DNA of 64,000 nt from an uncultured Pseudomonadales bacterium (GTDB taxonomy: Bacteria; Patescibacteriota; Microgenomatia; UBA1400; MFAQ01), in assembly GCA_964513845.1 (NCBI GenBank), contig CAZENT010000001.1, positions 149,278-213,277 on the forward strand, given 5' to 3'. Within the stretch, counting starts at the first letter, position 1. Every line of letters begins with the position of its first letter. Made by a program: the position numbers and the translations under genes. Shown here one piece after another: positions 37,367 to 64,000 of the stretch. Below the pieces are notes generated by a model, which was not told the origin of the DNA, searched no databases, and was given only the letters and a program-made list of their open reading frames with translations.

Positions 37367-37377
37367 AGCTTCTTATA

Positions 37378-38184: not shown

Positions 38185-38195
38185 GACTGGAGTAA

Positions 38196-39011: not shown

Positions 39012-39014
39012 GTC

Positions 39015-40484: not shown

Positions 40485-40549
40485 AATAAAATATCAGCTA
40501 AAATAGTAGAGTTGGATTGTACACCACACTCTATTAGAGTATAGCAAGA

Positions 40550-42265: not shown

Positions 42266-42477
42266 AAGTTAATCTTCTCGTTTCTTCCGTGCATATCCAT
42301 ATAAAAAACCAGATGCTCTTTCACCCAGCGTGAAAGCCATCTATTTTTTGCAGCCGAAAATTCTTGGAGTACCAAGAAACCAGGCTTTTCGGCTTTGCGC
42401 AATATTTTTTATATTGGACATGCACTACGAAACTACGAAGATGTTATTAGGTGTTCGCCTTGATATAAAATAGTGGA

Positions 42478-43506: not shown

Positions 43507-43527
43507 AAATGGGGTTAAAATAATGAA

Positions 43528-43983: not shown

Positions 43984-44096
43984 TCGAGGCTTGTCACTTC
44001 GGGAGCAAGGGAAGAAATCAAAGAAAACTTTTATAGATTCCGGATCAAGTCCGGAATGACTTTGAAACTAGAACCCAAATAAACAAGTACAATACG

Positions 44097-44161
44097 AGGT
44101 GGTACCGCCTGAAATGGCCCTCGTTAGTCCCCTTCACCGGAGATTAACGAGGGCTTTTTTT
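44097..44161 (+). promoter_or_regulatory. T-box-like antiterminator/terminator element in the valS leader
   Basis: GAGGTGGTACCGCC (T-box core, consensus AGGGUGGNACCGCG, with UGGU to pair a tRNA with A73) followed by terminator GCCCTCGTTA-N18-TAACGAGGGC-TTTTTTT. The 5' half of the terminator can pair with the T-box to form the antiterminator. Confidence 0.6.
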
Positions 44162-44214
44162 AATATAGAATTATTTATATAGATTTCGGGTCAAGCCCGG
44201 AATGACAAAGAAAA

Positions 44215-46302: not shown

Positions 46303-46316
46303 AATTAATACAAAAA

Positions 46317-46341
46317 GACCCGCCTGAGCGGGTCTTTTTTT
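46317..46341. terminator. Bidirectional intrinsic terminator (GACCCGC-CTGA-GCGGGTC) between valS and rplY
   Basis: 7-bp GC stem flanked by AAAAA and TTTTTTT. Confidence 0.7.
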
Positions 46342-46355
46342 GAGTTACTAATTTC

Positions 46356-47045
46356 TTATTCTTTAGGAGTTTCTTCGGACTTGGCTTCACCTTCAGCTGG
46401 TTTTTCACTTTCAGCGCCTTCTGCTGGAGTTTCGGCACCGGTTGCATCTTCGGAAACTTCTTCGGTAACGAGAGGCTCTTCTTCTTTTTGAGGTTCTTGT
46501 AGAGAGACAACCATTTGTTCAGGGTCTGTCTTGATTTCAACTTCAGCACCAACTTTGGCATCGGAAACCAAGAGGTGATCGCCAATTTCTTTCAGCGAAC
46601 TGATGTCAAAAACGATACTTTCCGGAATTTCAGTTGGTAATGCTTCAATTTCAATTTCATTTAGAGATTGAGAGAGAACGGCCATGTTGGACGAAATCAG
46701 TTCTGACTCACCAATTATTTCAACAGGTACATTGGCGGTAACTTTTTCTTTAAGATTGACTTGGTGAAAATCAACATGCATTTTGTCACCAGTCATTGGA
46801 CTGAAAGCGACAGAAGTAACAAGGGTGGGGCGTTCTTTGTCTTCTCCTTCGACCTTAACCCAGATAAGACTGGTTTCGCCAGCTTCTTTGTAAACACGAT
46901 TGAAGTCGACGGCGTTAACTTGGATGGCCTGACTTTCAATGGTTTTTCCAAATAGATTGGCTGGTACAATACCTGTTCGGCGAAGTTGTTTAACCTTACT
47001 ACCCAGAACGGTTCTTTTGTCGGCTTTCAATATATACTTTTGCAT
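46356..47045 (-). CDS. rplY: 50S ribosomal protein L25 / general stress protein Ctc with an acidic C-terminal extension
   Basis: MQKYILKADKRTVLGSKVKQLRRTGIVPANLFG matches the L25 N-terminus. Confidence 0.8.
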   Translation of the reverse strand: MQKYILKADKRTVLGSKVKQLRRTGIVPANLFGKTIESQAIQVNAVDFNRVYKEAGETSLIWVKVEGEDKERPTLVTSVAFSPMTGDKMHVDFHQVNLKEKVTANVPVEIIGESELISSNMAVLSQSLNEIEIEALPTEIPESIVFDISSLKEIGDHLLVSDAKVGAEVEIKTDPEQMVVSLQEPQKEEEPLVTEEVSEDATGAETPAEGAESEKPAEGEAKSEETPKE

Positions 47046-47083
47046 GAGTCGTATTGTAACTTATTAGCTTCAGCTAATCAAGT

Positions 47084-49729: not shown

Positions 49730-49964
49730 TGATTTAAGTATAAACGAAGTCTGTTCATGTGTTTTATTCTGTTTTTTCAGTATCTACATATTTTAGTTTT
49801 TTTCTTATGCCTATTTTTATTTATTCCCATGCCTAGTAAATAGTTTTTTCTGTATATACTTTTCACACATGAAAATCTAAGCACGCGCACTGCTAAAGTT
49901 ATCCACACGCTTTTTCTCATAAAAAAACCCTCTTTCGAGGGTTTTTAAATATCTCCGGCTAACT

Positions 49965-50396
49965 TTATTTGTCTAGGGCTTCGTTTACCAGACAGTCTGC
50001 CTTCTTGTTTAGTTCTCTGGGGACGGTGATAAATGTCATTAACTCTACTTGTTCTTTTTCACGTAACTCTTTGACCAAATCCACCACCTGTTGACGAAGT
50101 ATTTTGAGATGGGGTAGTTTTACTTTGTATTTGCCAAGAATTTGTCTGACAATTAATTCTGAGTCCAAAATGTATTTAAGTTTTTGGGTATATATTTTTT
50201 TCTCAAGCAATACCTCTAAACTTCTAATTACGGCGGTGTATTCGGCGACGTTATTGGTGGTTTCACCAATGGTTTCTGAAATGGTAAATACTTTTTTACC
50301 GTTGGATGCGGCATACACACCAATGCCGGCTGGCCCAGGATTTCCACGCGACCCACCATCGGTATTTATTTCTAGAAGTTCATATTTTTCTTGCAT
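49965..50396 (-). CDS. rnhA: Ribonuclease HI
   Basis: INTDGGSRGNPGPAGIG, TNNVAEY, and NKKADCLVNEA motifs carrying the D-E-D-D catalytic residues. Confidence 0.85.
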   Translation of the reverse strand: MQEKYELLEINTDGGSRGNPGPAGIGVYAASNGKKVFTISETIGETTNNVAEYTAVIRSLEVLLEKKIYTQKLKYILDSELIVRQILGKYKVKLPHLKILRQQVVDLVKELREKEQVELMTFITVPRELNKKADCLVNEALDK

Positions 50397-50405
50397 GTAG
50401 GTATT

Positions 50406-51548
50406 TTAGACCATAATCGCAAGAGCGAAAAGGAAAATGAGTTTGTTTTGAGGTAAAGTCCAGGAATAATGATCAAGTGTTCCCGTAAATAGAAGAATGG
50501 CTATCAATCCTAGAACTAGGGGATTGGAAATCACTTTCAATACTTTTTGTTTAAATAGTGAGATGAAAAATATCAGAGTTCCCAATATTCCCATTTCTGA
50601 AAGATATAGATAGAACAGGTTGTGAATTGGTTGTAGTTTTGAGGGGGTTAAGAATGATCCGGGTAAGATTGATCCGAGAGCTGGTATATAGTTGCCATAA
50701 CCATTTCCGACGAGAGGATTGTGCAATATTATCCTTTTGAGATAGGAAAAATAGAATAGACGATCTGATACTGATTGGATAGTGATTGCCGTATTCTGAA
50801 GAAATGGTTGAGCAATGGATAAGAATATTGACAAATAGATAATTATTTCTGGTTTGAGATTATAGATAATGAAAGCGAGCGCAAAAATTGAAGTTTTAGA
50901 AAACGATAGGAGAATGCCTAAGAACGGAACAATCTTTTGCCATGGCTTGGATGCTTTTCGCGAAAATAGATAAAAAACAATTAATAGATATCCGGCGAGA
51001 GAGTTGGCGTGCGAAAAGGTGGCAATCGGACGAAGAATCTCAAGACCAAGTAGGTTGAGGCGACCAATTCCTGGAGTACTGGTAGAGAAAGCTCTTTCGC
51101 CAAGTAGATAAAATAGACCACCAATTGATGATTGAGATATTAATTGCAGTACTTCCAAAAATACAATTCCGACTGTACTAAGAAACAGGGGAGTACGAAT
51201 ATCAGACCATTTGATTTTTTGAAGTCTTAAGGTGATATACACAAAGAGATAAAGAATCAGACGAAGCCACCAAAATATCGAGTTTAGCGGTGAAACCGAA
51301 AAGGCGATGTTTAGAAGAATGAAGAATATAAACAGACCAAGGTTAAAAAGATTTTTTCGAAGATAACTTGCAATTGATTTGAGATTTAACAAAACTAAAA
51401 TTATCAGAAGAATGTCTAAAAAGTATATGGTGGGGGAGAGGTAATCGATTTTGATACCGGCAACACGAGAAAAGGTTGGCCAAAAATGCAGACCCAGTTG
51501 AGTGGGCAAAATAAAAACAATAATCTTAATTAAGAAGTTGCTTAGCAC
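50406..51548 (-). CDS. Polytopic membrane protein, O-antigen ligase/polymerase (Wzy_C)-like
   Basis: About 11 TMs with a larger periplasmic loop; only weak family resemblance. Confidence 0.3.
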   Translation of the reverse strand: MLSNFLIKIIVFILPTQLGLHFWPTFSRVAGIKIDYLSPTIYFLDILLIILVLLNLKSIASYLRKNLFNLGLFIFFILLNIAFSVSPLNSIFWWLRLILYLFVYITLRLQKIKWSDIRTPLFLSTVGIVFLEVLQLISQSSIGGLFYLLGERAFSTSTPGIGRLNLLGLEILRPIATFSHANSLAGYLLIVFYLFSRKASKPWQKIVPFLGILLSFSKTSIFALAFIIYNLKPEIIIYLSIFLSIAQPFLQNTAITIQSVSDRLFYFSYLKRIILHNPLVGNGYGNYIPALGSILPGSFLTPSKLQPIHNLFYLYLSEMGILGTLIFFISLFKQKVLKVISNPLVLGLIAILLFTGTLDHYSWTLPQNKLIFLFALAIMV

Positions 51549-51618
51549 TGCCCCGATTGTACAGGATAACGATATGAGGATAATCTATATAGATCCCCGC
51601 TTTCGCGAGGATGACATT

Positions 51619-52077
51619 TTATTCTGTGGGAACAATGACCATCTGACGGAAAGGCGCTTCTCCACGAGACTCGGTTTTGATTCCCGGGAATTCTGAAAGG
51701 AACATATGGATGATGCGACGTTCGTAAGAGCTAAGATTGGGGAGAATGATTTCTTTTTGAAGACTGACAGCTCTTTCGGCAGCGTCTTGGGCTAGCTCTT
51801 TGAGAGTTTCTTCACGGCGCTCTTGATAGTCATTTACATTGAGATGAAGTTTGGGCCAAACACCAAATCGCTGGAAAATAATGAGAGAAAAAATCATACG
51901 AAGCGCGGACAATCCTTCACCGTGATGACCAACAAAGACTCCAGCTGACTCCTGAGGAAGAGAAAGAGAGATGTTGACGTTTTCGTCATCGGCCAGGTCG
52001 ATCTTAATTTGATCTTCATCAAGAGCAAGTTGAGAAAGCACGTTGGACAAAATTTCTTTGATTTTTGACTGATCCAT
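51619..52077 (-). CDS. Jag/KhpB-like RNA-binding protein (R3H domain)
   Basis: R3H motif ERRIIHMFLSEFPGIKTESRGE. Sits in the canonical position after yidC. Confidence 0.7.
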   Translation of the reverse strand: MDQSKIKEILSNVLSQLALDEDQIKIDLADDENVNISLSLPQESAGVFVGHHGEGLSALRMIFSLIIFQRFGVWPKLHLNVNDYQERREETLKELAQDAAERAVSLQKEIILPNLSSYERRIIHMFLSEFPGIKTESRGEAPFRQMVIVPTE

Positions 52078-52105
52078 TTTATTTTTTAATTGATATACAA
52101 ATTTA

Positions 52106-52858
52106 TTATTTTCCGGTCACACGAGTGACAAAAAGACGAGCTTTTTTGTAAGCCGGAATAAGACCACCCCAACCGGAGAAGAAGTATTGCTGAACGAGAG
52201 AGAAGACAGTAGAAATTACCCAGAAAAGAACAAGGCCAGATTGAAAGTTGAGGGAGATAATGACCGTCATGAGAGGCATCATGTAGATCATTTGCTGCTG
52301 CATACTGGAAGCCATTTCGAGGCTGTTTTCTTCTTTTTTCTTTTCTTCTTTCTTTTTGGGATTTTTTACTTCAGACACAATGCCTGATTGCATCATAAGA
52401 GAGAAAACGAGCTGAGAAACACCAGCGAGAATGGGCATGATGTAGGTTCGGTCTGGTTTGGTGAGATCGAGATACAGGAAATAGGGGTTCATGTTGGTTC
52501 CACCAACTGATGATTGCCCGAGGAAAAACATAAACACCTGGTAGAGAGAGATGAGGATGATGATTTGAAAAATTTGAGGAAGACAACCGGCGGCAGGATT
52601 AATACCTTTTTCTTTGTAGAGTGCGATCTGGGCTTGTTGAAGTGCAGTTTTGTCGGTGTGTTTGGCTTTAAGTCTGTCTAGCTCTGGTTTGAGATCCTGC
52701 ATTTTTTTGGCAGAGCGAAGGGAGGGGATAACTAATGGAAGAAGAATTACTTTGGTGATAAGCGTGATGGCGATAATGGAAAGACCAAGGTTGCCACCAA
52801 AGAGTTGGTAGAAAAACAAGAGAGCTTGGTAAAGGATTCCGTTTATTGGTGCGAGCAT
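52106..52858 (-). CDS. yidC: Membrane protein insertase YidC (short Gram-positive/CPR type)
   Basis: IITKVILLPLVIPSLRSAKKMQ and GCLPQIFQIIILISLY signatures. Confidence 0.9.
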   Translation of the reverse strand: MLAPINGILYQALLFFYQLFGGNLGLSIIAITLITKVILLPLVIPSLRSAKKMQDLKPELDRLKAKHTDKTALQQAQIALYKEKGINPAAGCLPQIFQIIILISLYQVFMFFLGQSSVGGTNMNPYFLYLDLTKPDRTYIMPILAGVSQLVFSLMMQSGIVSEVKNPKKKEEKKKEENSLEMASSMQQQMIYMMPLMTVIISLNFQSGLVLFWVISTVFSLVQQYFFSGWGGLIPAYKKARLFVTRVTGK

Positions 52859-52860
52859 AG

Positions 52861-53091
52861 TTATTTGATTTTATCAGGAACCGGGTCGTATCCACCTTTG
52901 AAGAGGGGGTTACATCTTAGGATTCTATTAAGTGACAGTTTTGTCCCCTGAATAATACCATATTGACGGTAAGCTTTCTTGGCATAGACAGAACAAGTGG
53001 GAGAAAAACGGCAAGCAAAGGAGGAACCAAAGAATGATCTGCCGATGGCATGGTAAAGAGGAGAGAGATATTTGTGATAAAAAGAAATCAT
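52861..53091 (-). CDS. yidD: Membrane protein insertion efficiency factor YidD
   Basis: CRFSPTCSVYAKKAYRQYG is the YidD consensus. Confidence 0.85.
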   Translation of the reverse strand: MISFYHKYLSPLYHAIGRSFFGSSFACRFSPTCSVYAKKAYRQYGIIQGTKLSLNRILRCNPLFKGGYDPVPDKIK

Positions 53092-53132
53092 GCAATAAGA
53101 TTATATCCTTGCTTGAAATATTGCTAAAAGAA

Positions 53133-53987
53133 CTAATTGGATAATTTTTTTTGATTACTGCTTGATTTGATTTTTCTAAGGAAATTTTGTGAGGTAACGA
53201 TACTTTTACCAATTTCTTTCTCTAATTTTTCTCGTGCTCCACCGGCGATTTTACCTCCCCGATGAGATATTTTTTTGTTTTCTTCAAAACCATGAGGGTG
53301 TTCTGTTTTGGTGATTTCTGTTGTCGAAGCTTCTCCCAACATCGAGAAGAGGAGTTCAAGATCTGTCATGTGATCTCGAAGGTTTTGTCTTTCCAGTCCC
53401 TTTATCTTTTTGTGTTCAGAGGGAGATATGCCAAAGGCTGCCTTGGAGATTTCTGCTGTCAGAATGGCGTAATCCAGTTGCTGTCTGACTCCATGGATTT
53501 GCCATTGTTCAGTTAGATCTTCACGAATAACTATAGATCGCATTCTTTTTTCGATCCAACCATCTGGATATCCCTTGGCTTTGTAGATAGCTCTGACTCT
53601 TTTTTGGGCAAGCTCCGGATCTTCAATTTCTTGAATTCTTTCATATCCCACCTTTGCTAACCAACGCTTGAATGGTTCTGCTTTGGGAGAGGGGATGGAC
53701 TGAATAATACGAAAAACGCTCTCTGTGTTTGCACAGTCTGTATCGTATTTTTTTCCATCTGATGACGCTAATTTCAGTTGTCTACAAATTGTAGACAACT
53801 CAACTCCATCGCTTGACTTAACCCTAGTTTTCATGGCGTTCCAATACACCCTTGGTTTTTTACTATTCGTTAACGCCTCGATAACATCAACAACTGAAAA
53901 CCACCATTCGTTTTTGAAGATGATTTTTCTAATCTCCTTTTTTTGGAAAATCGCTATCCTTGTTAACTCCTCAAATTTGTTGGACAT
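53133..53987 (-). CDS. Bro-N domain protein, DinD-like (DNA-damage-inducible protein D family)
   Basis: N-terminal Bro-N-like NEWWFSVVDVIEALTNSKKPRVYW and a DinD-like central/C-terminal region. It is inserted between rnpA and yidD. Confidence 0.5.
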   Translation of the reverse strand: MSNKFEELTRIAIFQKKEIRKIIFKNEWWFSVVDVIEALTNSKKPRVYWNAMKTRVKSSDGVELSTICRQLKLASSDGKKYDTDCANTESVFRIIQSIPSPKAEPFKRWLAKVGYERIQEIEDPELAQKRVRAIYKAKGYPDGWIEKRMRSIVIREDLTEQWQIHGVRQQLDYAILTAEISKAAFGISPSEHKKIKGLERQNLRDHMTDLELLFSMLGEASTTEITKTEHPHGFEENKKISHRGGKIAGGAREKLEKEIGKSIVTSQNFLRKIKSSSNQKKLSN

Positions 53988-54018
53988 AATAACAATTTAA
54001 TCCAAACAATACCCGAAG

Positions 54019-54360
54019 TCAAGAGGATTTTAGAAGGTTGGAAAGGTCTTTTTTAAGAATTTGAAAATCGGTTTCATGAACCTGGCGTTTGGGAACGATG
54101 AGATAGTCTTTTGGAGGAATAGATGAGAGAGTATTTTCTATGATGGCAGAAGTGACTCTTTTTATCTTATTGCGATCAACGGCAAGGGAGGCAGTTTTTT
54201 TGGAGAGAAGGATGGCCAGACGAGGAGATTGAGCTTTTTTATCTTCGGGAGTTTCGGCAACTACAAGAGTAAAGAATTTGCCAAAGACGGTTTTACCGGT
54301 TTGGTTTAAACGTTCTCTATCGAAACGGAGTGATAAACGATGACTCTTTGGTAGAGCCAT
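54019..54360 (-). CDS. rnpA: Ribonuclease P protein component
   Basis: MALPKSHRLSLRFDRERL and the RNR-like KRVTSAI region. Confidence 0.8.
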   Translation of the reverse strand: MALPKSHRLSLRFDRERLNQTGKTVFGKFFTLVVAETPEDKKAQSPRLAILLSKKTASLAVDRNKIKRVTSAIIENTLSSIPPKDYLIVPKRQVHETDFQILKKDLSNLLKSS

Positions 54361-54363
54361 AGA

Positions 54364-54501
54364 TTAAACGGATAATTTAGTCCTGCCTTTGGCGCGACGG
54401 CGTTTGATGACGTTGCGGCCATCATGGGAGGCCATTTTAATACGGAAACCGTGGGTACGGACGCGTTTGATTTTGTGTGGCTGGTAGACTCTTTTTGGCA
54501 T
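54364..54501 (-). CDS. rpmH: 50S ribosomal protein L34 (45 aa; below ORF-track size cutoff)
   Basis: Manual translation gives [45 protein letters not shown], the L34 consensus. Confidence 0.85.
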
Positions 54502-54718
54502 GGTTTTATTTTATCATTGATGAGCGGAGCTTATTATACCGCATCTTTGTTGATTGCCACGATTAAAATGGATCTCTATGAGTATTGAAGAACATTCTGC
54601 GGAGATCGGGCATGAAGATACTTTGTGATGTCTTTTTGATGGGTATTTTGGGGGTTGTAGATTGTGGATAACATGGTAAAACTGAACTACACCTGCCCGG
54701 TTATTAATATTTTACGTT

Positions 54719-56101
54719 ATGGAAATTGACGCCAGTCATCTGTGGCAAGCCGTTTGTGGAGACCTTTCCGTGTCGATGTCTCAGGCCGGTTTCAATGGAT
54801 TCGTAAAACCTTGTTTTATAAGGACGGTGACTCCTATTGATAACGAGAGAATTATCGTAGAGTTAGCGGCGCCGACAGCGTATCATGTGCGCACAATTGA
54901 CGAAAAATATTTTAGTTCAATCAAGCAGTCGATGGAGAAGATCTCACATAAAAAATGTGACGTGGCTTTAATCGTCGTTGAAGCAATAAAGGAGGAGAAA
55001 GAAACTAAAACTAGCGCAAGATCTGAAAAAGAAGAAGCAAATATGAATTTGTTTGCCTCACCAGAACCAGATAAACAAGCCGGCAATAACTTAAATCCAA
55101 GATATTTGTTTGAAAATTATGTTGTTGGTAGTTCAAATCGATTAGCTTTTGCGGCCGGAAAAGCGGTGGTGGATTTCCCCGGAACAAGACACAATCCTTT
55201 GTTTATCTATGGAGGAGTAGGAGTTGGTAAAACTCACTTAATGCACGCCGTGGGCCATGAACTGGTAAAAAAAGGGGTTGGGAAGGTGGTTTATGTAACC
55301 AGTGAGCAGTTTACTAATGACTTAGTATCATCACTTCGCTCAAAAATGACAGATGCTTTTAAAAAGAAGTATCGTCAAGTTGGCGCTTTGTTGATTGACG
55401 ATGTGCAGTTCTTTGGCGGCAAAGACTCAACTCAAGAAGAGTTCTTCCACACTTTTAACGAGCTAACAAATAAGTCGGCTCAAATTGTGATGACTTCCGA
55501 TAGAAAGCCTCAAGATATTGAAGGTTTAGAAGACAGATTAAAAAGTCGCTTTTTGGGAGGAATGGCGGTAGATATCGGTTTGCCCGATTATGAAATGAGA
55601 CTCGCTATCTTGCGCCAGAAAGCTCAAGAAATTAAAGTAGAAGTGGAAGATGGTGCTTATGAGTTGATGGCTAACAACTTCAACACTAATGCACGTGAAT
55701 TAGAAGGCACTTTTGTTAAATTGGCAGTCGGAGCAAGCTTGGAAAATGGAGTGCTCACAAAAGAAATGGTGCAACAAACAATGGGTTTGCCGGCTAACTT
55801 TGTGAAGGAGATAAAAGTCAGACCGATCAAAGTAGTTTCGACGGTAGCTAAGTATTTTGATTATAGAAACAAAGATCTTCTGGGGACAAGCAGAAAGGCC
55901 GATCTGGTGGTGGCTCGACATATTGCGATGTTTCTTTTGCGCGATACTTTGAATATCCAACTGGAAAAAGTGGGGGAGATTATGGGTGGAAGAGATCACA
56001 CGACTGTGATGCACGCAGTGGAAAAAATGAAGGATGAAGTGAGTAATAATGCCGATGTACGGCGTAAAATAACGGCTATAAAACAAGCGTTATACACTTA
56101 A
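54719..56101 (+). CDS. dnaA: Chromosomal replication initiator DnaA
   Basis: AAA+ motifs GGVGVGKTHL and LLIDDVQF, plus the domain IV HTH DHTTVMHA. Confidence 0.95.
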   Translation: MEIDASHLWQAVCGDLSVSMSQAGFNGFVKPCFIRTVTPIDNERIIVELAAPTAYHVRTIDEKYFSSIKQSMEKISHKKCDVALIVVEAIKEEKETKTSARSEKEEANMNLFASPEPDKQAGNNLNPRYLFENYVVGSSNRLAFAAGKAVVDFPGTRHNPLFIYGGVGVGKTHLMHAVGHELVKKGVGKVVYVTSEQFTNDLVSSLRSKMTDAFKKKYRQVGALLIDDVQFFGGKDSTQEEFFHTFNELTNKSAQIVMTSDRKPQDIEGLEDRLKSRFLGGMAVDIGLPDYEMRLAILRQKAQEIKVEVEDGAYELMANNFNTNARELEGTFVKLAVGASLENGVLTKEMVQQTMGLPANFVKEIKVRPIKVVSTVAKYFDYRNKDLLGTSRKADLVVARHIAMFLLRDTLNIQLEKVGEIMGGRDHTTVMHAVEKMKDEVSNNADVRRKITAIKQALYT

Positions 56102-56407
56102 ATATCCACATCTTATCCCCAGGACGTGGATAACTTTCGAAAAAGTGGATTAGTAGGGGGATAAGCACAAGGAGTGTTGATAAAGATACAAAGTTATCCA
56201 GAAAATTATCAACAGAAAATGTTAGTTGTTCTGAAAATAATAGTCACAACGGTTGAATAAATGATTAAAAAGTATGGATATAACAAACGAAGATAAATTA
56301 ACAACAAGAGTAATAGGCAAGAGCCACGCTTATAATCAACAAATCAACACGACCTATTACTATCATTACTATTTTTTAGATTAATATAATAATTAGAAGG
56401 AAATTCT
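56102..56407. other. oriC: cluster of at least 7 DnaA-box-like 9-mers followed by an AT-rich DNA-unwinding element
   Basis: ATATCCACA, TTATCCCCA, GTGGATAAC, TGTTGATAA, TTATCCAGA, TTATCAACA and others within 56102-56214. AT-rich stretch 56340-56400. A perfect TGTGGATAA box also lies upstream of dnaA at 54664-54672. Confidence 0.75.
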
Positions 56408-57517
56408 ATGAAAATAATTGTTCAATCAGGAGAGCTTAAAAAATATCTGGGAATAGTAAGCAGGGGAGTGAGTAGCAGGCCTCAGTTACCAATATTGTCG
56501 GGAGTTCTTCTAAAAGCGGAAAATGATGAGGTGAGTTTAGTGGCAACCGATTTGGAAGTGAGTTTTTGGTTGAGTCTTTCGGCGAAGGTAGAAGAAGAGG
56601 GTGAAGTGGTGGTTCCGGCAAAACTATTTTCTGAGCTGGTTTCAGGTTTTCCTTCCGGCAACGTAATGATAACTGTGGAAAAACACGTGGTAAAAATTGA
56701 AGTTGATGGAATTGTATCGGAAATAGTGGGCCAGGGAGCTGAAGACTTCCCCAGTATCCCCAGAGCAAGTAAGGCTCAAGTAGTTCTTCGAAGCGGAGAC
56801 TTTAGACAAAAAGTGGATAGAGTGTGTGTGAGTGCGGCCAGAGACGACACTCGACCAGTGTTGACTGGAGTACTTTGGGAAATTAATGAAGAAAAAGTGT
56901 CTTTGGTGGCGACTGACGGATATCGATTGTCGGTGGATAAGTTGACTTTGTCAAAAACAGAACTAGAAAAAGAAACGAGATTAATTTTACCTGCAAGATC
57001 TTTGCAAGAAATTTCAAAAATGTTGGGTGAAACCGGTGTTGATGTTTTTTCTTTGGAGTTTAGTAAGGAAAATCAACAAGTCATTTTTAAAGTGGGAGAG
57101 ATTGAGGTAACTTCGAGATTGATTGCAGGCGAGTTCCCGCCTTATCAACAGATTATGCCGAATACTTACTCGTCGAGAGCTGTCTTTGGTAAAGCAGAGA
57201 TACTAGAAGGCGTCAAAAGAGCTAATTTGTTTGCTCGAGATAATGCCAATATTATTAAGTTGCAAATGGAAAAAGATGGTGTGGTGGTTCGAGCTGAGAG
57301 TTCTCAGATTGGTACAAGTGTAAGTAAGGTAGAGGCAGTGGTTGAGGGTGAAGAATTAACAGTGGCGTTTAACGCAAGATATTTACTGGATTATCTGGCC
57401 AGCAGTACTTCGGAAAAAGTAGTATGGGAAACAGAGGGAGAACTGAAACCCAGTGTTTTTCGTAACGAAGATGAAGAAACTTGGGTGCAGGTGGTAATGC
57501 CTGTTAGGGTGCAGTAA
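56408..57517 (+). CDS. dnaN: DNA polymerase III beta sliding clamp
   Basis: Three-domain clamp (369 aa) in the standard position after dnaA. Confidence 0.9.
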   Translation: MKIIVQSGELKKYLGIVSRGVSSRPQLPILSGVLLKAENDEVSLVATDLEVSFWLSLSAKVEEEGEVVVPAKLFSELVSGFPSGNVMITVEKHVVKIEVDGIVSEIVGQGAEDFPSIPRASKAQVVLRSGDFRQKVDRVCVSAARDDTRPVLTGVLWEINEEKVSLVATDGYRLSVDKLTLSKTELEKETRLILPARSLQEISKMLGETGVDVFSLEFSKENQQVIFKVGEIEVTSRLIAGEFPPYQQIMPNTYSSRAVFGKAEILEGVKRANLFARDNANIIKLQMEKDGVVVRAESSQIGTSVSKVEAVVEGEELTVAFNARYLLDYLASSTSEKVVWETEGELKPSVFRNEDEETWVQVVMPVRVQ

Positions 57518-57971
57518 TCCAGTCGACTCTTACAAATTCAAGATCTTTTTCTGAAATATCGAAATAGTTTAGCCATGAAAATAAGTTTTCTCTGTTTTCT
57601 TTTACAGGAGTTTCGATTGTAATTGTGTATGTGGCGTTTGAATAATCGTATTCAATTTGGAATCCTGTTTCGATTATCGGAGAATTTTTACGAATAAAAG
57701 ATAAATTTTTGTCGATTCTAGCTTTGTCGGTTTTACTATAATCTTCTAAATTTTTTTTAAATTGTGTATTCCATTCTTCTGTTGACTCAACTGGGTTTAT
57801 CGGAGGTAAGACAATTGAAGCGCTTGGAGTTGATATTTCCGGAATGCTTTTTGTTATTTTTTTTGATAATGAAATAGAGTCAATGATTTGAATTATGAGG
57901 AAAAGAATAACAATCAATAATATTCCTCCCAGTATTTGATATTTTTTTGAAATATTTATTTTCATAGACAT
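57504..57971 (-). CDS. Bitopic membrane protein (N-terminal TM plus periplasmic domain), candidate VirB8/PrgL-like T4SS component
   Basis: TM ILGGILLIVILFLIIQII. Sits last in the T4SS-like gene array. No motif-level support. Confidence 0.35.
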   Translation of the reverse strand: MSMKINISKKYQILGGILLIVILFLIIQIIDSISLSKKITKSIPEISTPSASIVLPPINPVESTEEWNTQFKKNLEDYSKTDKARIDKNLSFIRKNSPIIETGFQIEYDYSNATYTITIETPVKENRENLFSWLNYFDISEKDLEFVRVDWITAP

Positions 57972-57976
57972 TTATA

Positions 57977-60721
57977 TTATGGAACAACTGCCCACATTCG
58001 GAATAGTTTGTATGATGTATCAAGAGTGTGAATATAGTTTTCACCCATCCATGGATCCATAGTGGTTATTTGATTTCCTTCGTGGGCGACGATGACCAGA
58101 AGATGCCCACACCATCCTCCACCACAAGCCATATCACCTGTTGCTAAAATCATGCCACAGTTCGAGAGAACGCTGTCAGCTTCGGCAAGATCTGATCCGA
58201 TATCGGTAACTGAAAGTCCACTTTCGGAAAGAATTTTTAAAGAGTTAAAATTGTCTGACCCACAAGAAACGTAAGGTATTTTGCCATCATAGACACGTGG
58301 TGGAGAATTGCTATCCCAGTAAACATATCCTCCGATTGAGTGTTGCCAATGCCAGACATCAGTAACATTTGAAGTTACACCAAAGCCGTTTAAAATCATG
58401 GTCATAGAAGCACTACTACAACCTGATGACCCAATTCGACAACTGCCAGCTGGTGAACAGTTTTTACAAAAAACGCCTGCCCATTCGGGGTCTCTTTGTG
58501 AAATAAAAATTCCTTCGGTATTAGCACAACCTGTGGCAGAGGTACGAGTTTTTGGAATTGATTCGAGTTGAACAAGAGTAGAAATAAGGGGGGCGACAAC
58601 AATGGAAGAAACATAAAAGAAGAAACCTACAAGTACGCCTAAAACAAGAGTGCCCACAGCAGAACTGGCGGCGGTTGTTGTGGCGGAACCGATTCCGGAA
58701 AAAAATTTGGATACTGCTGAAACAGCACCAACAACAGGAACGATGAGAACATCTCTAGTTTTAATTTTTTCACCATAGACAGAAACAGCTACTTTTTGAA
58801 CGACATTGACAGTTCCTTTTATGACAGAGAGAATAATGTCTCCAACAAGCCAGATTATAGCAGGAATAGCACCAACTCCTGTTGCTGCAAGACCAAATTT
58901 TGCACCAATACTGACTGCCAGTTTGGATAGAGCTTTCCCAAGACCTTTTTTTGTAAGTTCGGTGGCGATTTTCGTTCCGGCTTTAATGGCTGCTTTTCCT
59001 GCCGTAGAAGAAAGAATTTTTTTAACAACATAGTCACCTACTTTTTTGCCAACCCACGATCTAACGGCACCAATAGGATCTTCAACTATTCGAAAAATAT
59101 TGCCAAAAACAACGGGGAATTTGTCAGATATTTTTGAGAAAAATTTTGTGACAGGTTGAGTTAATTTTGTCCAACCAGTGATAATTTTATTAATATTTTT
59201 TCCTATAGGAGTGTTTGCGAATTTTCCAAGCACAACAGGCACTTTGGTGATTTCTTTTCCTAAAGGTGAGTTGGCAATTCTTCTGATCTGAGTGCCGGCT
59301 GCATCAAATAAATCCTTATTGGATTTGAAAAGTTTACCAAGTTCTGATTCGGGATTGTTTTTTGCGTAGAGACGGGCTTTGGCAAGTAAGGTTGGGGTGA
59401 GCCCTTTGCCGTATAAAAGGATAGCTTGGGGAGAAAGATCGGGATCTTGAGTTTTGGAATTAGTTACTAAAGCAGCGGACATCTCGGCTTGATAGCCGGC
59501 GTGAGCATTTAGCTCTCCAGGCATGTTGTGACGAATCGCTGCTTCTAGAAGCGCTGCGTCGTCGAGAGAAGAAAATAGGCGCGGCTGAACACCATTGTTT
59601 TCGAGATTGGAATGAATGGAGATAAAGACATTGTTGGCGAGCTCAATTCGATCGAGAGTGTCAGGGTCTTTTGATAGTCTTGTTTGACTGTCTTTATTAA
59701 ATTCTTGAAAAGCGACAGCTTGATTGTCAACAAAGACATCGAGTTGTTTGGGAAGATTTTCTATTTTTTGAGCAAGTTTTTGATTTGTTTCGGTGAGAGT
59801 TTTAATCTGAATAAGTTTGATTTCCAGATCTACGACTATATTTTGTTTGACTTCTTCTGCGTATTTTAAGAGAATAATTTCGTTTTCAGCAATTTGAGCA
59901 GTTAGGGTGGCTGCTTGTGTGGTTTGAGTATTGACCGCGTCGTAGACAGAGTGAACAAAATTTGAAGAAATTTTAGATAGATTTTTTTGATCTTCGGCTG
60001 ATAAATCTGAGATGTTAATCAATAGTGAGGCGGATTGAATGGCAACATCAATATTGGTAACACAAATGGAGTTTAGCTCCACAGCCTCTTCGATGATTCT
60101 GTTTTGCGCTTCTACAGATAACTTTAAAAAGCTTTCATGAGTAAGAGCAACTTCTCTCACTGCTGCGTAAGAAGCAGCTAAAGCAGTTTTTTTTGAGTCT
60201 GATTTTGGAGAACCAAGCGAGATTAATACTTTATCTGCGTCTTGAAACTTTTCTCCTCTGGCTTGTCTTTTTTGTTTGTTAAGAAGAGCTTTTTGCTTTA
60301 TCTTTGAATGGGCAATAGCTATTTTGACCTGTTCGGCAACCGATCTCTGAGAGTTTGATTTTATCTCTTCGCTTTCGAGAAGGGCTTTGTTTTTCTCGTA
60401 CTCAGCAACTAAAGACTCGAGTTCTGGGGGAATGGAGGCTTCGGGTTTTGTTTCCTCTTCTTCGTTAAGAGAATTGAGTTTAATTATTAGCTTTTCGATT
60501 TCACCTGAGCCGGCAATATATTTTTGAAAAGAGTAGACGTCGATTATTCTAGGATCAATACGATCATCAGGGAAAAATTTAGGCCAGTATCCTTCATACA
60601 ACGAATAAGCTTTGTTTAGAATTTTTAAAATTCTAGAATTTAGTTTGTCTTCTGAAACAGCCAAATACGAAAGAGAGTTCTTTAGATCCTTAATGTCTTG
60701 CGAATAATCATTTTTTGCCAT
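57977..60721 (-). CDS. T4SS-associated membrane protein with a C-terminal papain-like cysteine peptidase domain (C39-like/CHAP-like); PrgK/TcpG-type cell-wall hydrolase analog
   Basis: Coiled-coil N-domain (~560 aa), amphipathic Lys-rich repeats, 2 or more TMs near residues 600-700, and a C-terminal domain with candidate catalytic Cys (GSSGCSSASMTMIL) and His (GGWCGHLLVIVAHEG). Confidence 0.5.
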   Translation of the reverse strand: MAKNDYSQDIKDLKNSLSYLAVSEDKLNSRILKILNKAYSLYEGYWPKFFPDDRIDPRIIDVYSFQKYIAGSGEIEKLIIKLNSLNEEEETKPEASIPPELESLVAEYEKNKALLESEEIKSNSQRSVAEQVKIAIAHSKIKQKALLNKQKRQARGEKFQDADKVLISLGSPKSDSKKTALAASYAAVREVALTHESFLKLSVEAQNRIIEEAVELNSICVTNIDVAIQSASLLINISDLSAEDQKNLSKISSNFVHSVYDAVNTQTTQAATLTAQIAENEIILLKYAEEVKQNIVVDLEIKLIQIKTLTETNQKLAQKIENLPKQLDVFVDNQAVAFQEFNKDSQTRLSKDPDTLDRIELANNVFISIHSNLENNGVQPRLFSSLDDAALLEAAIRHNMPGELNAHAGYQAEMSAALVTNSKTQDPDLSPQAILLYGKGLTPTLLAKARLYAKNNPESELGKLFKSNKDLFDAAGTQIRRIANSPLGKEITKVPVVLGKFANTPIGKNINKIITGWTKLTQPVTKFFSKISDKFPVVFGNIFRIVEDPIGAVRSWVGKKVGDYVVKKILSSTAGKAAIKAGTKIATELTKKGLGKALSKLAVSIGAKFGLAATGVGAIPAIIWLVGDIILSVIKGTVNVVQKVAVSVYGEKIKTRDVLIVPVVGAVSAVSKFFSGIGSATTTAASSAVGTLVLGVLVGFFFYVSSIVVAPLISTLVQLESIPKTRTSATGCANTEGIFISQRDPEWAGVFCKNCSPAGSCRIGSSGCSSASMTMILNGFGVTSNVTDVWHWQHSIGGYVYWDSNSPPRVYDGKIPYVSCGSDNFNSLKILSESGLSVTDIGSDLAEADSVLSNCGMILATGDMACGGGWCGHLLVIVAHEGNQITTMDPWMGENYIHTLDTSYKLFRMWAVVP

Positions 60722-60726
60722 ATCAG

Positions 60727-62574
60727 TTACAAAGATTCTGCTTGTTGTTTGCGTGCTTCGAGTACTTCTGAAGGCTTGGTAGTGGAAAGAGCGTGTTCGT
60801 CTGGGGAGGAGATTACTTTGATGGCAACATGATTTTGTCCGGCAAAGAAAATACCTTCTCCGACACCGGCTGAAACTAAAAGTTGTTTTTCTCCTTGGGA
60901 GAGATAGAAAACTTCGGCTATTTGATTGATAGCGGCTGAAGATTGTTTGAGAAGGAATTTGAGGGCAGAGTTGGTAATGATGGCTTTACCATAGGGAGAG
61001 GCTAAAAAGTCGTCAACGTTTTGAGAGATGACAGTAACACCAAGATAGTATTTACGGGCACGCTTGACAAAACCTTGGAGAATCTTGGCAGAGTCTTCGT
61101 AGCGCATAAGATACCAGGCCTCATCTACAATGAGCATGCGTTTACGAAGATTTTTGCGTATTTCTGTCCAGACAAAGTCAAGAATCATAAACATAACGAT
61201 AGGACGAATCTCATCAGCAAGATCGCGCATGGAAAAAACTGTAATAGGAGCATCGATATCGATATTTGATTGCTGATCGAAAGTGCCTTTGATACCGCCC
61301 ATGACGTATCGCTCTAGTCTGGCAGCTAGTACCTTGGCTGTTTGATCTTCCATACCGATGATGGCACGGTAAAGATCTTCCATACGAGGAGGTTCTTGGG
61401 TGTGTGTGGCAGGATCATCAGTGATGTTTTTCTGACGATAGGTGAGAACGAGGGCGCGATTCATGGTGGCCTCTTCCATGGGGGACATGGCACCAATCAT
61501 GATTTTAAGTAAGGAAATGAGGAAAAGATATTTGTAGCCCATTTCATCTTCAGTGCTTTCTAAAGGCCTCGCAATTTGAAACGGATTAATTTTGTGGGGA
61601 GAGTTGGCAGAAAAAGAAATGTAGTTTCCGCCTACGGCTTTGGTGACCATTTCATATTCGTTTTCCGGATCGAGAATGATGATTTGGGTGTCAAACATTA
61701 AAGAGCGAAGAATTTCTAGCTTAACGGCATAGGACTTACCGGCACCGGCTGTGGCCAGAACGAGCATGTTGGCGTTTTCGAGAGAGAAACGATCGAAAAT
61801 AATGAGAGAGTCGTTGTGAGCATTGATTCCGTAAAGAATACCTTGGTTGTCTGAAAGTTCGGAGCTAGTGAAGGGAAAGGTGGTGGATAGAGCAGTTGTG
61901 TCCATGTTTCTTGTGATCATCAGCTTGTCTTTGCAGTATGGAAGAGTAGTTTTGAAGGCATCCTCCATAGAGAGTGAGGCGACTTTGCTGATAATGAGCA
62001 GAGAAGCGAGCATGCTTTGAACCTGAGAAGTGACAGTGTTGAGCTCTTTTTCGGACTCGGCAGAGATACTGATGTAAAGAGAAAACTGGAAAAAGCGTTC
62101 GGCACCTTTGACTAGCTGTGCCTGAAGTGTTTTAGCGTCTTCTAAAGCCGCTTCGGTGGCGGCTTGGGGAATACGACCTCTTTCGATGTCAGTGTTAATC
62201 TCGGCTTCCATTTCGGCCAGGCGACGCCTGAGGCTATCAAGAGTGTCTTTGGAGTCACTAGGATAGATGTACATGGAGATATCAAGAGAGTGATTGAAGT
62301 TTACGAGAGGAGCAAGCCAGTTGGCGGAAACATAACGAGGGTAACCAGTGACAAAAAGAGTGCGAATGTAGTTGTCGTCAATCTTGATAAAAGAAAAATC
62401 AACTTCGATGGAGGAGGGAGCTAAAACATCTTGAATTGAAGCGGCGTTGGTAGTGTCTTTGATGGCCGAAAGAGGAGCTCTGGGCTTTTCTTCAGTTGAT
62501 GTGACAGGAGCCGCCGAGACAACGGGTGGTGTTTCGGTCTTTTTGGCACCAAGAGAAAAGAGATTTAACCCCAT
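60727..62574 (-). CDS. virB4: VirB4/TrbE/CagE-family T4SS ATPase (C-terminal about three quarters)
   Basis: CagE_TrbE_VirB region (YIRTLFVTGYPRYV), Walker A LATAGAGKSY, Walker B MLIVDEAWYLM, and DPENEYEM. Confidence 0.8.
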   Translation of the reverse strand: MGLNLFSLGAKKTETPPVVSAAPVTSTEEKPRAPLSAIKDTTNAASIQDVLAPSSIEVDFSFIKIDDNYIRTLFVTGYPRYVSANWLAPLVNFNHSLDISMYIYPSDSKDTLDSLRRRLAEMEAEINTDIERGRIPQAATEAALEDAKTLQAQLVKGAERFFQFSLYISISAESEKELNTVTSQVQSMLASLLIISKVASLSMEDAFKTTLPYCKDKLMITRNMDTTALSTTFPFTSSELSDNQGILYGINAHNDSLIIFDRFSLENANMLVLATAGAGKSYAVKLEILRSLMFDTQIIILDPENEYEMVTKAVGGNYISFSANSPHKINPFQIARPLESTEDEMGYKYLFLISLLKIMIGAMSPMEEATMNRALVLTYRQKNITDDPATHTQEPPRMEDLYRAIIGMEDQTAKVLAARLERYVMGGIKGTFDQQSNIDIDAPITVFSMRDLADEIRPIVMFMILDFVWTEIRKNLRKRMLIVDEAWYLMRYEDSAKILQGFVKRARKYYLGVTVISQNVDDFLASPYGKAIITNSALKFLLKQSSAAINQIAEVFYLSQGEKQLLVSAGVGEGIFFAGQNHVAIKVISSPDEHALSTTKPSEVLEARKQQAESL

Positions 62575-62597
62575 GATTAAGTATAACCGAAAAGGGG

Positions 62598-63254
62598 TTA
62601 TTTAGGGATTAAAGAAGGGTTGATTTGAGCTGGGCTGAGTGTGGTTGAGCCTTGGTTGTAGATAGTGTAGAAAAAAGTAACAAGATCGCTGGTTGTTAGT
62701 TGGGAAGCTTTGAGCCCTAAACGAGCAAACTGTCGAATTAAATGATCGCGACGAGGATAGAGAACAGTAGAAGCTTTTTCTTCGATATACACCAGGTCAA
62801 AAGGAGGTTTTTGAGGAGCTTTGGCAAAAGGATTGAAGTTGGATTTGGACAGGCCAAGTTCGATAGCTGAAAAAGGAATAATCACATAAAACTTTTTTTC
62901 CAAAACACGGTTTTCTTTGACAAGGGATTTGACAAACTGGCGATAAGCCAGAAGCTGTTCCTTAATTTTTTGGGAAGAGACAGACTGAATACGGGTATCG
63001 ATGAGATTGAGGTAGTCGGAAATATTTTTTCTCTGGGAACGGATAAGGATTTGAACAGGGAAAGAAAGAGAGTTTAGAAGGCCAGCGTAGGCATAAATCG
63101 TAGCATCTTGTTCCTCTTCTGAGAGAAGATTGAAGTTGATGGCGGTGGTTTTGAGAACCAAGGCGGCTGAACCATCTTTGAGAAAAACGAGATGATCTTT
63201 GATGGCATAGATATCGAGATGTTCTTGGGTAGAGGCTTTGATGTTGTCGGGCAT
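62598..63254 (-). CDS. VirB4 N-terminal domain encoded as a separate ORF (split VirB4), or a frameshifted pseudogene fragment
   Basis: IKDHLVFLKDGSAALVLKTTAINFNLLSEEEQDATIYAYAGLLNSLSFPVQILIRSQRK matches the VirB4 extreme N-terminal region. It ends 23 nt before the VirB4 ATPase ORF, in a different frame. Confidence 0.5.
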   Translation of the reverse strand: MPDNIKASTQEHLDIYAIKDHLVFLKDGSAALVLKTTAINFNLLSEEEQDATIYAYAGLLNSLSFPVQILIRSQRKNISDYLNLIDTRIQSVSSQKIKEQLLAYRQFVKSLVKENRVLEKKFYVIIPFSAIELGLSKSNFNPFAKAPQKPPFDLVYIEEKASTVLYPRRDHLIRQFARLGLKASQLTTSDLVTFFYTIYNQGSTTLSPAQINPSLIPK

Positions 63255-63259
63255 TTTCT

Positions 63260-64000
63260 TTATTGAGCTTGGATTTTAAGAGGTTTGACAATGTCTCCGG
63301 TAAGTTCGAGAGAGTAAGGAGCAAAGGAAAAGCCTTCTTTTTCGGCGAGAATTTGGAAAAGACCAGAGTCAAGAGGCCTGGCGAACATAAACTGCCCAAG
63401 TTTGTTGCTCTTGGTGGCACGAAGAGTGAGATTGTCTTTTTTGATTTCCACCATAACGCTGTCGAGGATATGTCCTGAAGGGGTGAGAGTCAAACCAACA
63501 AGAGTGTTGGGCGTGGTAGGAGTAAAAGGAATGGGGAGGTTGGTGGTGGGAGCCGGAGCTTGGGCAACAGGGGCTGTTTGAATAGCTGGAGCCGGCTCGG
63601 GTGGGGCAATTGGAGTAGTAATGGGTTCTGGTGAAGGAGTTGGTTGAGTAGCCGAAGGAATTTCTTGGGGTGGAGTTTGAGCCGGAGCTTGGGCAACAGG
63701 GGCTGTTTGAATAGCTGGAGCAGCGGGCTGGTCCGGAGTAACCGTTTTTGAGGCTTCGGTAATCTCGATACGAGCATTGGTGACGGGCTGAGCGATTGCT
63801 AGATTATTTTCTTTTGTGGGGACGGCAGTTTCGGTGCTTGATGGGCTGGCGACAGTTCTTTTCCAAGAATATTGGGTGGGTGAGTAGATAGATTTGATGA
63901 AAGCGATTAGCCAGACATCAAGAGAGCGACCTTGAACGGGAACGAAGGCTATGCCAACACCAAGTAGAAGGAAGGCAAAGACGATGGGGTATTTGAAGAA
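63260..64000 (-). CDS. Partial CDS (5' end off-window): N-terminal TM segment, Pro/Ala/Thr-rich linker with a 129-nt tandem repeat, and a C-terminal beta-sandwich-like domain
   Basis: Manual translation of the minus-strand frame continuous with ORF 63260-63493 is open to the window edge: ...FFKYPIVFAFLLGVGIAFVPVQGRSLDVWLIAF ... PAAPAIQTAPVAQAPA ... EPAPAIQTAPVAQAPAPTTNLPIPFTPTTPNTLVG-LTLTPSGHILDSV.... The track ORF 63490-63777 is the off-frame L/P-rich reading of the same repeat. Confidence 0.6.
   Translation of the reverse strand, partial: FFKYPIVFAFLLLGVGIAFVPVQGRSLDVWLIAFIKSIYSPTQYSWKRTVASPSSTETAVPTKENNLAIAQPVTNARIEITEASKTVTPDQPAAPAIQTAPVAQAPAQTPPQEIPSATQPTPSPEPITTPIAPPEPAPAIQTAPVAQAPAPTTNLPIPFTPTTPNTLVGLTLTPSGHILDSVMVEIKKDNLTLRATKSNKLGQFMFARPLDSGLFQILAEKEGFSFAPYSLELTGDIVKPLKIQAQ
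63550..63721. repeat. Two copies of an identical 43-nt core (129-nt period) encoding the APAIQTAPVAQAPA linker repeat
   Basis: GAGCCGGAGCTTGGGCAACAGGGGCTGTTTGAATAGCTGGAGC at 63550-63592 and 63679-63721. Confidence 0.8.

Follow-up and report, generated by a model that had tools for sequence, protein, structure and literature searches.

What does the gene directly behind virB4 contribute to the Patescibacteria type IV secretion system (T4SS), and on whose cell wall would its product act? The question is raised by the window analysed here, that is, the whole stretch of 64,000 nucleotides (nt) taken from contig CAZENT010000001.1 (positions 149,278 to 213,277 of the forward strand; assembly GCA_964513845.1). 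Its T4SS locus is the chromosomal, origin-proximal and relaxase-less system near dnaA that was described for Patescibacteria in 2025 (PMC12102498). In this locus a gene for a VirB4-like ATPase is followed after 5 nt by an open reading frame (ORF) for a protein of 914 amino acids (aa) and, after a further 5 nt, by an ORF for a protein of 155 aa. An earlier note, made from the sequence alone, had described the 914-aa ORF as coding for a T4SS-linked protein, and the ORF was confirmed as real: with 39 full-length homologues and E-values down to 0 the ORF is not due to chance, and its start codon agrees with that of the homologues. The protein combines an N-terminal module (N-module), a membrane region and a C-terminal cassette. 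We propose that it is a predicted peptidoglycan peptidase, tethered to the membrane, coupled to the VirB4-type (monoderm-like) T4SS of an ultrasmall Collierbacteria-like Patescibacterium and served by a cassette-specific partner, a proposal that in our judgement has an even chance of being right.

The C-terminal cassette and its membrane tether

The earlier note had placed a papain-like peptidase with a Cys/His dyad at the Cys-rich C-terminus, and these elements held. Neither of the outcomes that the note had named as refuting, the lack of such a fold in structure prediction and a dyad not conserved in homologues, was observed. The AlphaFold2 (AF2) model of aa 716–914, built on ten sequences, has a papain-like fold (pLDDT 81.7, pTM 0.81), and its Foldseek matches in the PDB with E < 1e-3 are all clan-CA cysteine peptidases. 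The neighbours there include staphopains A, B and C (2.6e-5), the pseudomurein endoisopeptidase PeiR, the C39 domains of PCAT1, ComA and LahT, the B. anthracis C39-like protein 3erv and the papain-like toxin domains CdiA-CT 8ssm and 9l5u, with TM-scores, normalised by query length, of 0.45–0.57. Among predicted viral structures (BFVD), the best matches are a tail tape-measure segment (E = 2.5e-5, TM 0.60) and a phi29-type tail morphogenesis hydrolase. Peptidase_C39_2 (PF13529), for which the gathering cut-off is 24 bits, scores 18.8 bits with the full-length protein (E = 0.0025, aa 764–891) and 21.8 bits with the isolated domain (E = 0.00029); 8 of the 39 homologues match it at E ≤ 0.01 (best 2.6e-7), and one homologue is named 'C39 family peptidase' at NCBI. 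PF03412 is matched by one homologue only (E = 4.5e-4). From the original label, C39-like or CHAP-like (NlpC/P60-fold), the C39-like part was kept and narrowed to C39-like/staphopain-like, and the other part was dropped because neither CHAP (PF05257) nor NlpC/P60 was matched by the window protein in Pfam at E ≤ 1. Sequence searches of the PDB with the whole protein and with profiles of the N-module, the cassette and the partner gave nothing significant (best E = 0.21–6.8), and a word-index search with the cassette alone found two short fragments only, which is uninformative on other carriers of such cassettes.

The candidate nucleophile C768 lies in GSSGCSSASMTMIL (aa 764–777) and the candidate general base H873 in GGWCGHLLVIVAHEGNQ (aa 868–884). 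In the AF2 model, C768 begins a helix and H873 and D889 lie on adjacent strands, which together make up the canonical papain arrangement. Together with Q742, these residues are kept in every full-length C39-type homologue aligned or read, as are all nine Cys of the last ~190 residues. As modelled, the cassette would share its fold and its Gln/Cys/His/Asp arrangement with Peptidase_C39_2 and the staphopains (C47) of clan CA, from which it differs in a Cys-rich insert (C752, C755 and C761) between the Gln and the nucleophile, in its fusion to a large membrane protein and in its sub-threshold Pfam score.

Ahead of the cassette, the transmembrane helices of the earlier note correspond to three hydrophobic segments, which are also present in the homologues and which end in the junction motif APLISTLVQLES. 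The Lys-rich amphipathic region, likewise noted before, was recovered at aa 480–620, with a net charge of +19 and the highest helical hydrophobic moments of the protein. Since this positive flank precedes the helices, the positive-inside rule leads us to predict an N-in, C-out topology, with a cytoplasmic N-module and an outward-facing cassette; the Cys-rich nature of the cassette and the N-terminal signal-anchor of the partner support the same orientation. The N-module is modelled as all-alpha with good confidence over aa 1–490 and with poor confidence beyond. Its earlier description as coiled-coil-rich stands as far as an all-helical domain with long hairpins (aa 254–332) is concerned, while its coiled-coil content could be verified only in part. 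The N-terminal 720 residues have no sequence relative in Pfam, NCBIfam, PHROG or the PDB, and Foldseek with the N-module model returned only generic helical bundles from the PDB (E ≥ 0.84).

One Cys outside the catalytic set, C732 (58526..58528), lies ~12 residues past the junction motif and is kept in 39/39 closer homologues whatever their cassette (in contexts such as GCAN, NCS and DCG); the M23 cassettes described below share a C-terminal YNxCPAGG...C motif. Lipoprotein processing at C732 (ATGC/VSGC-like) was considered and rejected, because ~12 mostly polar or charged residues separate this Cys from the hydrophobic helix, which is not a lipobox context, and because the many conserved Cys more likely form disulfides. 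Judging from these patterns, disulfide-stabilised extracytoplasmic domains seem likely for the cassettes of the family.

Cassette exchange, a co-varying partner and a mosaic island

The word-index search that yielded the 39 homologues (523–965 aa) was complemented by an exhaustive profile search with the N-module, which found only 94 clusters among 1.84 billion representatives. The genomes concerned are labelled Candidatus Collierbacteria, Woesebacteria or Microgenomates, apart from a few evidently mislabelled bins. Contigs L007, L010, L013 and L015 carry a clearly Candidate Phyla Radiation (CPR)-type locus under the labels 'uncultured Pseudomonadales' or 'Spirochaetia', which are probably binning or classification errors. 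In 74/74 aligned sequences, which are representatives of 50%-identity clusters, the last membrane helix ends in the near-invariant junction (A/G)P(I/L)(I/L)ST(L/I)(V/A)(Q/H)(L/F)(E/D)S, and a tail of 118–230 aa follows; the tails are mutually unrelated. Among the 39 closer homologues, Pfam recognised an M23 cassette in 23, C39_2 in 8, CHAP in 4 and Amidase_2 in 2. Classed by motif, the 74 tails comprise ~42 M23-like, 10 HExxH, 5 C39-like, 5 CHAP-like, 1 Amidase_2 and 11 unclassified ones; Pfam, applied to 29 of the tails, bears out the M23, C39_2, Amidase_2 and CHAP assignments, and part of the basis for the HExxH and CHAP-like classes consists of motifs and weak matches (Reprolysin_5 0.0073; CHAP 6e-6 to 1.3e-3). 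The most distant positional orthologue fetched (L015, 4267..7203; 978 aa) has an HExxH cassette, and its N-terminal part matches both Pfam Ribosomal_TL5_C (E = 2.2e-8) and the ribosomal L25-like gene of the window (46416..46748), which looks like an odd domain recruitment.

The five cassette types of the family are all peptide or amide cleavers, and no glycosidase was seen among them. Because Amidase_2, M23 and CHAP-like cassettes occupy the same slot and peptidoglycan is their sole common substrate, the C39-like cassette likely acts on the wall; the cassette swap is the strongest available argument for peptidoglycan as its substrate. The same replacement at one locus position supports, indirectly but strongly, the prediction of the earlier note that the protein is a functional analogue of VirB1 and PrgK.

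The gene downstream of the cassette changes with it. Across the 18 loci in which co-variation was followed, a partner family of 150–163 aa is present in 6/6 independent loci with C39-like cassettes (the window, L002, L010, L013, L016 and L022) and in 0/12 others. Loci with M23 cassettes have partners of 326–361 aa from two families (M23-A and M23-B) that track two M23 sub-types, Amidase_2 loci have a partner family of their own (339–341 aa), the HExxH locus has a 185-aa protein, and loci with CHAP-like cassettes, as classed by motif, have proteins of 134–152 aa. The 138-aa protein of the CHAP-like locus L018, the only one of these compared, shows distant similarity to the C39 partner family (E = 1.5e-6). 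Between the partners of C39 and Amidase_2 loci, of C39 and M23 loci, and of M23-A and M23-B loci, similarity is confined to the N-terminal anchor and linker. This co-variation is independent of descent, since by VirB4 the C39-like loci are most closely related to loci with M23 or Amidase_2 cassettes. With the C39-type partner family as profile, only 13 clusters were found, all of 148–160 aa. The most divergent member, P0144, comes from a genome whose VirB4 and N-module are 81% and 23% identical to those of the window, and the prediction that a C39-like cassette should precede it was tested: the gene before P0144 carries one, 66% identical to that of the window.

In Pfam, the partners of every cassette type are without a credible domain, and no relative of them was found in the PDB. 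All partners checked have an N-terminal membrane anchor, and their main domain should therefore face outward like the cassette. Inhibition of the cognate cassette is the most likely role of the partner. Searching the 64-kb window with all partners and cassettes by tblastn recovered only the cognate pair plus one M23-like match at ~29.6–30.0 kb. The latter is a coding region for an M23-like peptidase (~29600..30010, plus strand), 32–35% identical to the M23 cassettes of the orthologues and presumably a housekeeping wall enzyme.

Cassette and partner lie in an island of exceptional variability, as a comparison with 17 non-redundant related loci revealed. VirB4 is 87–99% identical within this Collierbacteria-like set, and identity to the window amounts to 87–94% for TrsD, 79–93% for dnaN and 82–94% for dnaA. 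The N-module is only 39–69% identical across the same loci, with the exception of the trio L007/L008/L014 (~86%), and the cassette and the next gene are often unrelated between loci with conserved flanks. L013 and L017, for instance, are 98.5%, 96.2% and 96.3% identical in VirB4, dnaN and dnaA, respectively; their N-modules are ~50% identical, the former has a C39-like and the latter an Amidase_2 cassette, and their partner genes are unrelated. The N-module is itself a mosaic, in which the segments at aa 1–95, 217–345 and 561–650 fall into discrete identity classes that reassort between conserved joints of the N-module and membrane region (aa 96–216, 346–560 and 651–721). Homologue P0002 is thus 49% identical to the window protein at aa 1–95 and 99–100% at aa 96–345 and 481–650, and P0007 is 83% identical at aa 1–95 and 26% at aa 217–345.

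At the DNA level, the window and L008 cease to be similar at the virB4 stop codon and become so again at the 3′ end of dnaN; within the gene, similarity is limited to patches that match the conserved joints, the junction motif among them. A conserved anchor thus lies on either side of the stretch that holds the cassette and the downstream gene (~57515..58546), as homologous recombination would require in order to replace it. Since the 3′ ends of the partner gene and of dnaN share 14 nt (57504..57517) in tail-to-tail orientation, the hypervariable island reaches into the 3′ end of an essential gene, dnaN, and ends there. Between the window and L022, the cassette is 66% and the N-module 23% identical, and this better conservation of the cassette across lineages fits cassette transfer. 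A mosaic locus with exchangeable cassettes and a co-varying downstream gene makes a plain housekeeping VirB1 role an incomplete description, and the joint swapping of cassette and partner points to a role in conflict or host interaction.

Whose wall would be cut

The reading that we favour can be put as follows. The cytoplasmic all-alpha N-module (~600 aa) would dock on the VirB4/TrsD/PrgI platform, and the three membrane helices, with the invariant junction at their end, would hold the cassette at the membrane, where the extracytoplasmic C39/staphopain-like cysteine peptidase (~190 aa) would cleave the peptide stems or cross-links of peptidoglycan at the secretion machine. The substrate would be the producer's own wall and perhaps also that of a host cell closely pressed against it. 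The 155-aa anchored protein would inhibit the tethered hydrolase and so keep cleavage in check, and cassette and partner would form a two-gene module exchanged by recombination between the junction-motif DNA and the 3′ end of dnaN.

This arrangement resembles those of PrgK (pCF10), TraG (pIP501), TcpG (pCW3), CwlT (ICEBs1) and Agrobacterium VirB1 in that the gene lies within a VirB4-type locus and encodes a membrane-anchored protein whose predicted peptidoglycan-cleaving domain would be extracytoplasmic; such hydrolases presumably open the wall locally for the machine (PMC12102498). Unlike these proteins, the 914-aa protein is without an SLT/lysozyme or CHAP/NlpC-P60 domain (no Pfam or NCBIfam match to SLT, glucosaminidase, CHAP or TrsG-type domains) and has a C39/staphopain-like catalytic domain. 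Its anchor consists of three helices behind a 600-aa cytoplasmic mosaic domain instead of a single N-terminal helix, and its catalytic domain can be swapped and comes with a downstream gene specific to the cassette. VirB1 homologues of the Patescibacteria T4SS are mostly unlinked to virB4 (PMC12102498). In Southlakia epibionticum ML1 (Saccharimonadia), peptidase and lysozyme genes directly downstream of virB4 are reported to be essential for epibiotic growth (Wang et al. 2023, as cited in PMC12102498); like the window locus, this genome thus has wall-hydrolase-like genes right after virB4, though it belongs to a different CPR class. The operon of staphopain encodes its own specific inhibitor, staphostatin, as stated in the entry 1pxv, and may by analogy be taken as a formal precedent, a clan-CA protease whose inhibitor comes from the same operon; the window partner differs from staphostatin in being membrane-anchored and without detected similarity to any PDB chain.

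Several points weigh against a cis-acting wall hydrolase. Both Pfam scores of the cassette (18.8 and 21.8 bits) are under the gathering threshold, the Foldseek TM-scores are moderate (0.45–0.6), and the enzymatic activity of the cassette is a prediction from sequence and model. Searches of Pfam and NCBIfam, in which the profiles of TrsG and CD419 specific to mating pair formation were not included, detected no homology to VirB1, PrgK, TrsG or CD419. The topology was derived by hydropathy only, and the first hydrophobic stretch is 35–40 aa long; if it forms a hairpin, the cassette would face the cytoplasm. Furthermore, the hydrolase gene is the most variable in a neighbourhood that is 79–99% conserved, which is unexpected for a housekeeping enzyme acting in cis on the wall; a cassette-specific partner would not be expected for such an enzyme either, and docking of the N-module does not explain why this predicted cytoplasmic part is mosaic and hypervariable.

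These last features would be accommodated by a polymorphic effector–immunity module, which we regard as possible but not probable. The protein, or the cassette released at the junction, would then be delivered by or alongside the T4SS and would degrade the wall of another cell; tentatively, this cell might be the host bacterium of the epibiont or a rival epibiont, and the downstream anchored protein would protect the producer and its kin. Such a module would have the same enzymology as the one favoured above, the two differing in whose wall is cut. CdiA-CT/CdiI, Rhs, LXG and the Xanthomonas X-Tfe/X-Tfi pairs all combine a conserved delivery part and a junction with variable C-terminal enzymes and an adjacent gene that changes with them, and the Xanthomonas T4SS delivers wall hydrolases with cognate immunity proteins. 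As described in PMC3482391, polymorphic toxin systems have a conserved N-terminus, unrelated C-terminal toxins and an adjacent immunity gene, and the conserved N-part, invariant junction and unrelated C-terminal enzymes of the 914-aa family follow this layout. The adjacent gene co-varies with the cassette independently of VirB4 and N-module relationships, the hypervariable mosaic island lies between genes that are 79–99% identical, the cassette is better conserved than the N-module between the window and L022, as fits cassette transfer, papain-like toxin/immunity pairs (CdiA-CT 8ssm and 9l5u) are among the structural matches, and the best viral matches are wall-penetrating virion proteins. However, unlike polymorphic toxins and X-Tfe, the 914-aa protein is predicted to be integral in the membrane of its producer, with three helices and a large N-module, and it has no recognised trafficking domain or XVIPCD-like secretion signal, which leaves release or delivery purely hypothetical. 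There are no orphan cassette or immunity arrays, the locus abuts dnaN and the 64-kb window holds no extra copies; no coupling protein was seen in the loci examined, and an enzyme that acts in cis and has its own inhibitor would account for the co-variation just as well.

A related and similarly doubtful possibility is that the 914-aa protein is tape-measure-like or pilot-like, with a wall-degrading tip that breaches the wall of a host or rival and a partner that protects the producer. Tip and partner might then be exchanged by homologous recombination at the junction-motif DNA and dnaN, and natural competence could help; we hold this part of the idea with the same reserve. In T5 Pb2, a long helical region is followed by hydrophobic segments and a C-terminal wall peptidase, and the 914-aa protein has its parts in the same order as such phage tape-measure proteins and tail lysins (T5 Pb2, phi29 gp13). 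Unlike these, its gene lies in a chromosomal T4SS locus and not in a prophage, the likeness outside the cassette is one of architecture only, and no PHROG family is matched at E ≤ 1.

It is improbable that the C39-like domain acts as a protease that matures a secreted protein, such as T4SS pilins or leader peptides, instead of cutting peptidoglycan. The double-glycine leader peptidases PCAT1, ComA and LahT are among its structural neighbours, the single homologue matching PF03412 would suit this role, and VirB2-like pilin arrays are common in T4SS loci of Microgenomatia (PMC12102498). However, Amidase_2 (an N-acetylmuramoyl-L-alanine amidase), M23 and CHAP-like domains fill the same slot in orthologues, with peptidoglycan as their common substrate, and this replacement makes a leader-peptide or pilin protease unlikely; moreover, no ABC transporter domain, as in C39 bacteriocin-processing exporters, is fused to the protein or encoded next to it. 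We give still less credence to the view that the membrane region is the missing VirB6-type channel subunit of Microgenomatia in divergent form, with the hydrolase as an accessory fusion. VirB6 homologues are scarce in this class (PMC12102498), the gene adjoins virB4, and 'extended' VirB6 proteins with large hydrophilic domains exist (PMC12857230), but the hydrophobic helices of the 914-aa protein number only three, fewer than the five or more of VirB6, and the protein gave no hidden Markov model match to VirB6, PrgH or TcpH in Pfam and NCBIfam. A separate polytopic membrane protein of 568–614 aa with at least five hydrophobic stretches is encoded a few genes upstream of virB4 in related loci (L002, 737..2443; L001, 2448..4292); it has no Pfam match and is a better candidate for the 'missing' VirB6. 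The helix number and this upstream candidate were the grounds for rejecting a VirB6 identity of the 914-aa protein.

Locus context and significance

Features of the T4SS locus in the 64,000-nt window (positions count from the first letter of the window)
Feature	Coordinates	Strand	Remarks
914-aa ORF, ATG start	57977..60721	−	mosaic N-module, then membrane region and, at the C-terminus, hydrolase cassette; stop codon 57977..57979
Predicted cytoplasmic all-alpha domain, aa 1–480	59282..60721	−	AF2 pLDDT ~80–90
Lys-rich amphipathic stretch, aa 481–606	58904..59281	−	predicted on the cytoplasmic membrane face; low AF2 confidence
Three hydrophobic helices, aa 607–720 (~607–641, 657–678, 682–720)	58562..58903	−	Kyte-Doolittle scan
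Junction motif APLISTLVQLES, aa 710–721	58559..58594	−	end of last membrane helix; boundary of swappable cassette
C39-like (clan CA) cysteine peptidase cassette, aa 722–914	57980..58558	−	nine conserved Cys; Pfam PF13529, AF2, Foldseek
Q742 codon, candidate oxyanion-hole Gln	58496..58498	−	SQRDP motif
C768 codon, candidate nucleophile	58418..58420	−	first residue of helix 768–779 (AF2)
H873 codon, candidate general base	58103..58105	−	CGH motif; in strand 869–881 (AF2)
D889 codon, candidate third triad residue	58055..58057	−	DPW motif; ends strand 884–889 (AF2)
155-aa protein, putative inhibitor/immunity	57504..57971	−	N-terminal membrane anchor, Pro/Thr linker, ~90-aa domain; cassette-specific
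VirB4-like conjugal-transfer ATPase, 615 aa	60727..62574	−	NCBIfam conju_CD1110 1.8e-111; Pfam P-loop_TraG 1.1e-28
218-aa TrsD/TraC-like protein	62598..63254	−	like N-terminal part of VirB4
3′ part of gene running past the window end	63263..64000	−	PrgI (VirB3)-like by synteny
dnaN	56408..57517	+	convergent with operon; conserved right-hand boundary of hypervariable island

The genes run in the order PrgI-like, TrsD-like, VirB4, 914-aa gene, small anchored gene, convergent dnaN and, beyond it, dnaA, and this order is kept in every related locus with enough flank. The fragment at the window end has no Pfam match, and full-length genes syntenic with it match PF12666 PrgI. It encodes a Pro/Ala-rich linker in which the stretch APAIQTAPVAQAPA is present twice, and over part of the gene DNA similarity to related loci breaks off. 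At 47084..49729 on the minus strand lies the gene for a conserved DUF4012 protein of 881 aa, which follows the RNase H gene as it does in related loci. Throughout the window (1..64000), all 2-kb bins show a positive plus-strand GC skew, including those of the rnpA/yidC and dnaA–dnaN region (~52–58 kb), where the origin and a change of sign would be expected; unusual strand composition disparity is on record for one Microgenomates genome (PMC7143001).

The T4SS context in Patescibacteria was already known (PMC12102498, PMC12857230, PMC10633639), and so are wall hydrolases beside virB4, noted for one Saccharibacterium. In the searchable literature, a scope outside which most subscription-journal papers lie, no earlier account was found of the family or its invariant junction, of the exchange among five cassette types, of the mosaicism of the N-module or of the co-varying partner; the main text of PMC12102498 does not describe the 914-aa family.

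The T4SS of Patescibacteria is widespread and lies next to the replication origin; in the only species tested, a Saccharibacterium, epibiotic growth requires it (PMC12857230, PMC11665869), and a perspective of 2024 called the role of the T4SS in Saccharibacteria 'completely unknown' (PMC11665869). In Collierbacteria-like genomes, the 914-aa gene fills the hydrolase slot with a family that VirB1 profile searches miss. Within a core locus that is otherwise highly conserved, this gene and its partner are the only place where hypervariability and recombination are seen. This hypervariability suggests that the pair is likely a point of contact with something variable, such as host wall chemistry, host inhibitors or competing strains. 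The question of what the T4SS is for in CPR bacteria thus becomes an experimental one, posed by an enzyme of 190 aa and an ectodomain of 115 aa, both suited to expression in E. coli. If the module proves to be an effector with its immunity protein, this would be the first concrete, testable function for the CPR T4SS, a system essential in Saccharibacteria.

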